Source of the DNA: Malacoraja senta | Taxonomy: Eukaryota | Reading direction: 5' to 3' | NCBI GenBank assembly: GCA_038087875.1 | Contig: CM075990.1 | Location: forward strand, 11,968,001 to 12,028,000 | DNA length: 60,000 nucleotides | Shown: positions 35,931 through 43,619 of the stretch, piece after piece | How positions within the stretch are numbered: the stretch's first letter is position 1 | How the letters are laid out: each line of letters opens with the position of its first letter | Program-made: the position numbers and the translations under genes | Notes under the pieces: model-generated | Databases searched by the model: none | The model's input: the letters and a program-made list of their open reading frames with translations, nothing else | Told to the model about the DNA's origin: nothing

Positions 35931-37535
35931 CAGTGGCTTGCAAAAGTTTTCATACCCCTTGAACTTTTCCACATTTTGCCGCGTTACAACCACAAACGTA
36001 AATGTATTTTATTGGGATTTTATGTGATAGACCAACACAAAGTGGTGTATAATTGTGAAGTGGAAGGAAAATGATACATGGTTTTCAAATTTTTTTAACA
36101 AATAAAAACTGAAAAGTGTTGTGTGCAAACGTATTCAGCCCCCTGAGTCAATACTTTGTAGAACCACCTTTCGCTGCAATTACAGCTGCAAGTCTTTAGC
36201 TGGGGTATGTCTCTACCAGCTTTGCACATCTAGAGACTGAAATTTTTGCCCATTCTTTGCAAAATAGCTCAAGCTCAGTCAGATTGGATGGAGAGTGTCT
36301 GTGAACAGCAATTTTCAAGTCTTGCCAGAGATTCTCAATTGGATTTAGGTCTGGACGTTGACTGGGCCATTCTAACACATGAATATGCTTTGATCTAAAC
36401 CATTCCATATAGCTCTGGCTGTATGTTTAGGGTCGTTGTCCTGCTGGAAGGTGAACCTCCGCCCCAGTCTCAAGTCTTTTGCAGACTCTAACGGGTTTTC
36501 TTCCAAGATTGCCCTGTATTTGGCTCCATCCATCTTCCCATCAACTCTGACCAGCTTCCCTGTCCCTGCTGAAGAAAAGCATCCCCACAGCATGATGCTG
36601 CCACCACCATGTTTCACAGTGGGGATGGTGTGTTCAGGGTGATGTGCAGTGTTAGGTTTCCATCACACATAGCGTTTTGCATTTAGGCCAAAAACTTCAA
36701 TTTTGGTCTCATCTGACCAGAGCACCTTCCTCCACATGTTTGCTGTGTCACCCACATGGCTTGTGGCAAACTGCAAACGGGACTTCTTATGACTTTTTTT
36801 CAACAATGGCTTTCTTCTTGCCACTCTTTCATAAAGGCCCGATTTGTGGAGTGCACGACTAATAGTTGTCCTGTGGACAGATTCTCCCACCTGAGCTGTG
36901 GATCTCTGCAGCTCCTCCAGAGTTACCATAGGCCTCTTGGCTGCTTCTCTGATCAATGCTCTCCTTGCCCGGCCTGTCAGTTTAGGTGGACGGCCATGTC
37001 TTGGTAGGTTTGCAGTTGTGCCATACTCTTTCCATTTTCAGATGATGGATTGAACAGTGCTCCGTGAGATGTGCAAATTTGTTTATAACCTAACCCTGCT
37101 TTAAACTTCTCCACAACTTTATCCCTGACCTGTCTGGTGTGTTCCTTGGGCTTCATGATGCTGTTTGTTCACTAATGTTCTCTAACAAACCTCTGAGGCC
37201 TTCACAGAACAGCTGTATTTATACTGAGATTAGATTACACACAAGTGGACTCTATTTACTAATTGGGTGACTTCTGAAGGTAATTGGTTGCACTGGATTT
37301 TATTTAGGGGTATCAGAGTAAAGGGGACTGAATACTTTTGCACGCGACACTTTTCAGTTTTTTATTTGTAAAAAAATCTGAAAACCATGTATCATTTTCC
37401 TTCCACTTCACAATTATGCGCCACTTTGTGTTGGACTATCACATAAAATCCCAATAAAAAACATTTACGTTTGTGGTTGTAACATGACAAAATGTGGAAA
37501 AGTTCAAGGGGTATGAATACTTTTGCAAGCCACTG
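35931..37535 (-). mobile_element. Full-length Tc1 transposon (IR-DR type, ~210-bp TIRs, TA TSD)
   Basis: TA-CAGTGGCTTGCAAAAG...CTTTTGCAAGCCACTG-TA; inner direct repeats near 36125-36142 and 37324-37345. Confidence 0.95.
36148..37156 (-). pseudogene. Tc1 DD34E-type transposase, disrupted by frameshifts and stops
   Basis: MKPKEHTRQVRDKVV start; ARRKPLL, WSDETK, QQDNDPKH and PDLNPIENLW motifs are split across ORFs. Confidence 0.93.
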
Positions 37536-42443: not shown

Positions 42444-42578
42444 TTCTTCTTTCGTGTGGCGTGCACAGCCTAAAGTTGTTGGACAACTTGTTCTATTTGA
42501 TCTTCCGTTTGTGCTCGTCGAGTTGATTGCATTAGTCGAAACAGGGCAGACCACGTGAAGTTTGCAATCTTCCACCCC
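42444..42578 (-). mobile_element. ~135-nt Vingi/Ingi-like non-autonomous retroposon
   Basis: Begins GGGGTGG and ends CGCCACACGAAAGAAGAAG; partial second copy at 1-70. Confidence 0.7.
42525..42578 (-). ncRNA. Minimal HDV-like self-cleaving ribozyme motif
   Basis: P1 GGGGUGG/CUGCCCU with G1-U; P2 GAUUGCA/UGCAAUC; P3 AAC/GGU with one mismatch; L3 UUCACGU; UUCG mini-P4; J4/2 CUAA. Confidence 0.72.
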
Positions 42579-43200
42579 GTCTATTGTCAAACCCGCCCTA
42601 TCCATGTACCTGTCCAAATGCTTCTGAGACATTGGGTTAGTCCCTGCCTCAACTACCCCCTCGTGCAGCTTGTTCCATACATCCACCCTCTTTTGTGTGA
42701 AAAAATGATGTCCCACTTAGCACTATTGTTTTAAGTATGGATTTATTCTTAGAAACCATAAGAATGTATAATTTATTTCAATTCAATCTAATTAAAGCGA
42801 AGAGATTAATGAACACCATGAGCAGAAGGATTGCCGTGCAATTTTCTGTTTAAATTGGAAGATCAGTATGTTTTAATACCAATTAGAGCTAAGTACGACC
42901 CCACTAAATCAAATAAGGTTGTTCATGGGTTTTTTGGGGGGGGCTAATGCAGGAAGATGAACAAGGTTTTAGATGAGATGGGTCTTCATCACATAACTTG
43001 CATGGCCCCATTTGTATTGTATTGTATATCCATATTGTATTATGTATTTTTTGTCTGCTTTCGTTCTGAATGTGTGGGTTTGTTGGTTGTTGGCTCCTGG
43101 ACATCTGAATTTCCCTGAGGGGATCAATAAAGTATTTATTATTATTATTTATATGATGAGGCAAGAAACAGCTGGAATCTCGAGCAAAACATAAAGTGCT

Positions 43201-43393
43201 TCTTCTTCTTTTCGTGTCCATCTTGTTACAAATGTTGACCTCGCTGTCATCGTCCGTCCTGAAAAGGACGCAAGCTTCCGGCGACAATCAGTGGAAACCA
43301 GCACTTGTCTCAATAGATGATGGTGGTAGCAGAATTAGCTCAGGATACTTCCAGTTTCCAGCCCCGCGACGTGGACGCTTCTGCTATGGGGCC
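43201..43393 (-). mobile_element. 193-nt Vingi/Ingi-like non-autonomous retroposon with a 12-bp TSD
   Basis: TSD ACATAAAGTGCT at 43189-43200 and 43394-43405; tail CACGAAAAGAAGAAGAA. Confidence 0.8.
43327..43393 (-). ncRNA. HDV-like self-cleaving ribozyme motif
   Basis: P1 GGCCCC/GGGGCU with G1-U; P2 UAGCAGAA/UUCUGCUA; P3 GCG/CGC; L3 UCCACGU; P1.1 CC/GG; imperfect P4; J4/2 CUAA. Confidence 0.82.
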
Positions 43394-43619
43394 ACATAAA
43401 GTGCTGACGAAACTCAACAGGTCAGGCAGCATCTGTGGAGGGAATGGACAGATGACATTGTAGGAGCTGCCTGACCTGCTGAAATCCCCCAGCACCTTGT
43501 GGTAAGCTGCATTTATGAACCTGCCTCGTGGGCTTGGCTTCATATCCCTGCAGTTGGCCCACTCCCCATGGCTAATATTTAATAATGAATATTTATTGAA
43601 TACATCTTGCCTGATGGGT

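Follow-up and report, generated by a model that had tools for sequence, protein, structure and literature searches.

A short retroposon with a predicted HDV-like ribozyme head in the skate Malacoraja senta derives from a Vingi-like LINE

Results

The window analysed here is a stretch of 60,000 nucleotides from the genome of Malacoraja senta (assembly GCA_038087875.1, contig CM075990.1, positions 11,968,001 to 12,028,000), and on its minus strand it carries a short retroposon of 193 nt (window positions 43201 to 43393), which we numbered along that strand, with element nt 1 at 43393. Read from this end, the element consists of a predicted HDV-like ribozyme (nt 1-67, 43327 to 43393), a remnant of the 5' UTR of a parent LINE that, in alignment to parent copies, is shortened by a deletion of ~45-55 nt (43302 to 43326), the start of the parent ORF (22 codons, up to a point shortly before the endonuclease motif; 43237 to 43301), and the 3'-terminal ~36 nt of this LINE, including its (AAG)n tail (43201 to 43236). 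The insertion target was an older, abundant repeat, and a target-site duplication (TSD) of 12 bp encloses the element. Its upstream copy (43394 to 43405) abuts G1 and matches the downstream copy (43189 to 43200) exactly, just as an earlier note made from the letters alone had described it, with the fold starting at the first base inside a perfect duplication. The 12-mer occurs just twice in the window, and since it begins with AG, the border between tail and TSD is ambiguous.

Elsewhere in the window, a Pfam scan of 140 of its 171 long open frames matched only a fragment of a Tc1/mariner-type transposase (HTH_Tnp_Tc3_2, 36666 to 37037, minus strand). A second ribozyme-headed short element, of a family that we termed J, lies 620 bp away (42444 to 42578, minus strand); it is ~135 nt long, has no P4, ends in an (AAG)n tail and is flanked by an 8-bp TSD. 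P3 is broken in this copy, and one 28-mer from the family matches the genome exactly at 1371 sites. The sequence of the 193-nt element, or part of it, was present in 20 runs from 11 studies and seven organisms; contigs of four of the runs (three organisms) covered the element family, and none of these bridged the window locus.

A structural descriptor of the HDV-like fold matched the window once, at the head of the element. In this match, the 5' strand of P1 (43388 to 43393) pairs with 43360-43365 over 6 bp (GGCCCC/GGGGCU) and opens with a G1-U34 wobble at the predicted cleavage site (G1, 43393). A single A forms J1/2 and leads into P2 (UAGCAGAA/UUCUGCUA; 43379 to 43386 paired with 43327-43334), a helix of 8 bp with no mismatch that was also recovered in the covariation alignment described below. 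P3 (GCG/CGC) closes the 7-nt L3, UCCACGU (43366 to 43378), P1.1 comprises two C-G pairs (C20 and C21 with G36 and G35, at 43358-43359), and J4/2 (CUAA, 43335 to 43338) opens with the predicted catalytic C56 at 43338, which equals C57 of the CPEB3 ribozyme in the Rfam alignment. The head combines the nested double pseudoknot of HDV-like ribozymes (P1, P1.1, P2 and P3) with a G-U wobble at position 1 and a C at the start of J4/2. When the descriptor was run on 3460 dinucleotide shuffles (415 Mb, both strands), it returned 128 matches, of which one equalled the real match. The Rfam model of the CPEB3 ribozyme (RF00622) also recognised the head, at 39.8 bits (E 3.4e-07) and above its gathering threshold of 35, and this was the sole Rfam match within the window.

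Both the sequence and the coordinates that the earlier note had given for this minus-strand fold are as it described them; the descriptor found every part that it had named (the G1-U wobble, the 8-bp P2, P3, P1.1 and the catalytic C), and the scan with HDV models that it had proposed came out positive with RF00622 and with the descriptor, which matched the head only. Its word 'canonical', however, was too strong, P1 being 6 bp rather than 7, and of its P4 (43339 to 43357) the region is present but folds only into a weak 3-bp hairpin (-1.6 kcal/mol, ViennaRNA). P1 length is reported to matter in HDV, whose P1 is one pair longer than that of the element (PMC4615214), and the P1 of R2 ribozymes is described as typically 6 or 7 bp (PMC3774820). 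Activity of the CPEB3 ribozyme is reported to benefit from a G-C pair in the second position of P1.1 (PMC9901934), and some well-folded HDV-like examples from trypanosomes and the horseshoe crab were reported as inactive (PMC4035085, PMC3774820). ViennaRNA further predicted that the upstream flank of the window copy pairs with G1-C3; this program cannot form a pseudoknot, and its folds therefore neither support nor oppose the ribozyme.

A first look at the 1.94-Gb genome yielded 2079 candidate copies of the element, the best 40 of them at 96-100% identity. The first 36 nt of the element have 173 exact matches and a subfamily-specific 18-mer near the 3' end has 571, and so there are at least 571 copies. 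Among 30 loci from the first-look list, which favours full-length copies, all 30 start at position 1, and the flanking repeat stops exactly before G1 in 17, with 6 more showing a chance extension. We also assembled an unbiased sample from the first 30 of the 571 exact 18-mer matches, that is, copies picked by their 3' part. Here 22 align from G1 and 2 more begin at G1 with an internal deletion (24/30 overall), two start at nt 2, one at nt 4 and one at nt 8, and two are truncated (nt 76 and nt 128). Three duplicate pairs are included in this sample, which leaves 27 distinct loci, 21 of them with a start at G1; copy number and 5'-end uniformity, which the earlier note had listed as checks of its reading, both held. 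Four copies (L182, L183, L201 and L202) start at G1 but lack part of the ribozyme core; each belongs to a duplicated pair, and these pairs are probably segmental duplications. All helices are intact in 25 of the 30 best copies vs 13 of the 30 unbiased ones, 27 of 28 unbiased copies spanning position 56 have a C there, and the ribozyme decays at about the same pace as the rest of the element (3.8% vs 4.5% divergence). With its TSDs and simple-repeat tail, the element was amplified as a unit, and neutral decay is now under way in most copies.

A T precedes G1 in 14 of 22 unbiased full-length copies and in 21 of 30 head-selected ones, against a background of 27%. Such a bias is what one would see if the cut lay one base upstream, in which case the target base would pair with G35, lengthening P1 to 7 bp and leaving one pair in P1.1, and MAFFT can align the head in this 7-bp register. 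The T, however, sits inside the TSD, and it is also common before the heads of LINE family D (5/7), which have a full 7-bp P1; in LINE family B it is found in only 3/8, so the bias is not general. Moreover, P1 is followed by GG in the families whose L3 carries UCC (A, D and E) and by GU in those with UUC, a pattern consistent with the 6-bp register. We judge a shifted cut site to be very unlikely, and read the enrichment as a junction preference.

An autonomous type of element with the same ends, which the earlier note had proposed to look for, is present in the same genome: a decayed, Vingi-like LINE of 3.1 kb, whose family was found among the relatives brought up by a search with the endonuclease region of family B. 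This parent family comprises 467 candidates, mostly 5'-truncated, and five of its loci keep the element head, at 83-95% identity where it was scored separately. Parent copy L077 matches element nt 2-83 (83%) and 86-157 (85%) at its 5' end and nt 158-190 (79%) at its 3' end, 3.1 kb away. L077 and L098 contain about nt 1-83, 86-157 and 158-191 of the element, in this order and inside TSDs, and L098 starts at the same G1 inside its TSD; no intact ORF was found in L098, the single full-length parent copy scanned. The 22-codon segment, assigned with the help of translations, is 85-89% identical to L077, L114 and L106 (81% to L115, over a shorter stretch), its start codon is mutated in the window copy, and the last ~36 nt are 79-82% identical to parent 3' ends. 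In a second short subfamily, the junction is still closer to the parent than it is in the window element.

Both ends of the element come from one autonomous LINE whose interior has been deleted, and the element is, almost certainly, a bipartite internal-deletion derivative of its own parent. No tRNA was detected in it, nor any match to A/B-box patterns; there was no other Rfam match, and its head comes from a LINE and not from a Pol III RNA such as tRNA, 7SL or 5S. The description of the element in the earlier note as ribozyme-headed and non-tRNA accordingly stands. Its proposal that the element borrows a Vingi-type RT is supported as to the dependence on such an RT, but the lender would be the element's own parent, present in the genome, rather than an unrelated LINE.

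Divergence from the majority sequence is 4.4% (non-CpG 3.3%, n=30) for the short element and 4.0% (non-CpG 3.3%, n=15) for the parent, which makes the parent a contemporary partner, and the amplification burst happened while the parent was active; the corresponding values are 1.0% for family B (n=6) and 1.2% for family D (n=11). The window element's subfamily might instead have been mobilised by the younger family B, which still has open ORFs (1008 and 1014 residues) and whose ends are identical to the last 18 nt of the element, including four A's where most parent tails have three. This appears rather unlikely, as the divergence of the element is near that of its parent and far from that of family B, with which it has nothing in common beyond the 18-nt tail and the ribozyme core.

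Family B is 3.13 kb long and has one ORF of 1002 aa with an APE, an RT and a C-terminal CCHC-type motif; Pfam matched RVT_1 and Exo_endo_phos in it and no RNase H. This ORF has the make-up of Vingi elements, namely a single frame with APE and RT and without RNase H. Over its length, the family B protein shares 49% identity with a multi-copy Anolis ORF of 982 aa, which we take to be Vingi-1_Acar, and the decayed parent is collinear with residues 7 to 978 of the same ORF; the RT region of family B is 59% identical to an Anolis cluster titled 'Reverse transcriptase domain-containing protein'. The placement of the parent as Vingi-like is based on domain make-up and likeness to the Anolis ORF, and RTE elements are likewise described with one ORF, no RNase H, bipartite derivatives and predicted ribozymes. 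If the parent belonged to RTE, there would be nothing new about its clade. We consider this highly improbable, in view of the 49% identity and of the C-terminal CxC...H...C motif of the family, which RTE elements are not known to carry. As a separate observation, the family B protein (L095, 631-3639) is 84-90% identical to a cluster (P0003, P0135 and P0137) that includes a protein of the bony fish Aldrovandia affinis, a likeness that may hint at horizontal transfer.

The RF00622 search of the genome also brought up other families of heads, scoring up to 64 bits. LINE families A (the parent), B, C and D begin with an HDV-like fold, family E does so more weakly (26 bits), and the heads of family G are joined to Vingi-like LINE ORF bodies, giving five LINE families with a clear HDV-like head and a weaker sixth; several short families, including I and J, also open with this fold. 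At least six Vingi-like LINE families coexist in the genome (L077-L094), of which B and D are young, at ~1% from the majority. The two family B copies with open ORFs of more than 1000 residues carry, at their 5' ends, several 26-nt tandem repeats of the front half of the ribozyme (L095 180-290 and L096 185-345, in element orientation). Members of family I (L125, L127 and L131-L136) are ~140-175 nt long and have a minimal head without P4; several of them have a 7-nt P1 3' strand vs 6 element-encoded 5' bases, and their first P1 pair may come from the target.

Copies within the element family are too alike to covary, and covariation was assessed on 16 heads from 7 families, whose rows are related and were chosen for matching the fold, so that it counts as support and not as a probability. 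Here 89% of cells pair and 12 of 19 pairs change on both sides, a covariation score reached by 0/500 shuffles, while slid-partner controls pair at 37-49%. The P1.1 C-G pair is kept in 16/16 rows; one head alignment leaves out families D and E, whose long P4 misaligned, and two further rows. The helices covary across the seven families, which answers the covariation check put forward by the earlier note.

Uniform 5' ends would equally follow from an internal promoter, and Pr77 of L1Tc is described as both promoter and ribozyme (PMC8256844, PMC3185411). The head could accordingly be mainly a Pr77-like internal Pol II promoter, with G1 as the transcription start and the ribozyme slow or dead, a reading that the 6-bp P1, the weak P4 and the lack of selection on the fold after insertion would suit. 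However, covariation between families extends to P1, P2 and P3, conservation of the catalytic C reaches at least 90% across the aligned families, and a promoter alone would not preserve pairing by compensatory changes; we find it unlikely that the head is mainly a promoter. A self-cleaving head is our preferred reading, and a promoter function within the same head, as in Pr77, is possible.

RF00622 stands for a single conserved copy in intron 2 of CPEB3, whereas the window element that scores above its threshold is a dispersed repeat. The link to CPEB3 is absent from the earlier note. The closest heads to CPEB3 belong to family G, which is old and rare. By hand counts against the Rfam CPEB3 consensus, L118 matches at 54/67 positions, L120 at 52/67 and L122 at 52/61 covered positions; the P4 stem agrees at 12-13/14 positions in each of L118, L120, L122 and L126, and P1, J1/2 and P2 together at 23/29 positions in L118 and L120. 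Most G copies differ from CPEB3 by C9U, a compensatory change of one P2 pair, one base of L3, a wobble in P1 and the L4 loop, about seven shared positions altogether, and C9U and changes in L4 are among those reported in highly active CPEB3 variants (PMC8233481). L137 and L138 are 5'-inverted G insertions in which the head lies together with an ORF body of 37-59% identity to family B within one TSD pair, and L140, a bipartite G copy, has a TSD and the same 3' terminus. Four of the five G loci with a retained head show it in the opposite orientation to the 3' body, as happens in twin-priming insertions (L137 1504-2327, L138 1501-2999, L139 and L122), and TSDs could be recognised in L137 and L138.

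Between sister families, only 10-26 of about 30 P1/P2 positions agree, so that CPEB3 falls inside their diversity, nearest to G. On this likeness in sequence, we think it fairly likely that the mammalian CPEB3 ribozyme arose by domestication of the 5' end of a Vingi-type retrotransposon, with HDV-like heads being the rule in Vingi-like LINEs and their mini-derivatives. The G-type heads would then be the missing non-mammalian outgroups of a ribozyme that, according to a 2021 paper, has none outside mammals (PMC8233481); domestication from mobile elements has been suggested in general terms only (PMC7761336). Convergence on a constrained fold could also produce such a likeness: the core of the Drosophila R2 ribozyme is reported to match HDV at 21/27 nt (PMC8256844), and it was the CPEB3 model that brought family G to light. 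Yet the match with G reaches beyond the core, into the P4 stem and into P1/J1-2/P2, where the sister families show only the limited agreement given above, and R2 ribozymes are described as keeping little primary sequence beyond five positions (PMC3774820). We hold convergence to be a real but doubtful possibility, and common descent of the G-type heads and CPEB3 to be the better reading.

Two of three expected CPEB paralogs were found in this genome, on C15 and C2128, and the one on C15 was scanned. The C15 gene is putatively CPEB3-like, a paralog call made from motifs. In 150 kb over this CPEB2/3/4-type gene there was no Rfam match at gathering, in the 50 kb holding most of it there was no RF00622 match at E<=1, and around it the descriptor matched only at least 80 kb upstream and nowhere inside the gene. 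If the paralog call holds, the lack of such a ribozyme in the C15 gene would fit a later insertion. A copy of the element family lies at G000:C15:8286714-8286784, ~90 kb upstream of the first detected coding exon of this gene.

Discussion

We consider it very probable that the element is a non-autonomous internal-deletion derivative whose head cleaves itself before G1. To the three-part make-up, TSDs, copy number, 5' starts and covariation that were observed, this model adds transposition steps taken over from L1Tc/NARTc and R2. A copy would be transcribed, either as part of a host Pol II transcript or from a promoter within the head, and the ribozyme would cut at G1 and give the RNA a defined 5' end, the element thus being predicted to release itself from read-through transcripts. 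The endonuclease/RT protein of the parent would bind the retained 3' tail, and the RNA would be inserted by target-primed reverse transcription, producing TSDs of ~9-13 bp. Because cleavage would occur 5' of the catalytic core, each full-length daughter would keep the ribozyme. The ribozymes of NARTc/NARTco and SIDER are reported to cleave in vitro at +1 (PMC4035085, PMC3185411).

As a type, ribozyme-headed short LINE derivatives are already known (NARTc, RIME and R2 SIDE), and HDV-like ribozymes on some SINEs are noted in a review (PMC6765202). The earlier note had given a 5' HDV-like ribozyme in Vingi as known, but our literature searches found no report of one, no account of the element and no named source of the CPEB3 ribozyme; all three appear to be new relative to this literature, and Repbase, Dfam, patents and supplements, which lay outside its scope, may pre-empt them. 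In the parts of Kojima 2018 that bear on this question, the restriction of bipartite non-coding derivatives to RTE, Ingi, Vingi and R2 is raised as a puzzle, with the ribozyme suggested as the answer, and Vingi is not listed there among the ribozyme carriers. Our results would add Vingi, by prediction, to the LINE clades with 5' self-cleaving ribozymes and fill this gap. They would also provide, in family G, a named candidate source for CPEB3, with which the ancestral states and origin of that ribozyme become testable. The human genome itself contains a Vingi fossil, X12_LINE. Vingi-1_Acar has been used for gene insertion, and one of the driver RNAs described unusually retains the native 5' UTR; should this 5' UTR also be a ribozyme, it would bear on the design of templates.

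Among known systems, the element resembles the trypanosome NARTc, RIME and NARTco, derivatives of L1Tc and ingi, which are described as bipartite, with 5' and 3' ends from an Ingi-group LINE, an HDV-like ribozyme in the first ~70 nt, a start at ribozyme +1 and TSDs. Unlike them, it resides in an animal genome, its parent has no RNase H, its tail is (AAG)n and its P1 has 6 bp, and it is known here from sequence. With the derivatives of Vingi-1_EE and with Vingi-1_Acar it shares a compact, single-ORF APE and RT parent without RNase H and the occurrence of internal-deletion copies, and it differs from these Vingi elements, as described, in its predicted ribozyme head, none having been assigned to Vingi in the literature searched. 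R2 SIDEs are likewise reported as internal-deletion derivatives of a LINE with a 5' HDV-like ribozyme, and R2 ribozymes have a P1 of 6 or 7 bp; R2, however, is rDNA-specific and uses a restriction-like endonuclease, whereas the element is dispersed and of APE type. The mammalian CPEB3 ribozyme (RF00622) has the same fold, the same P3 and nearly the same P2 and J4/2, and its L3 differs from that of the element at one base. CPEB3, however, is conserved as a single copy in an intron, its P1 has 7 bp and its P1.1 contains a U-U pair, whereas the element is mobile and has inverted P1 pairs, 6 bp in number, two C-G pairs in P1.1 and an unrelated P4.
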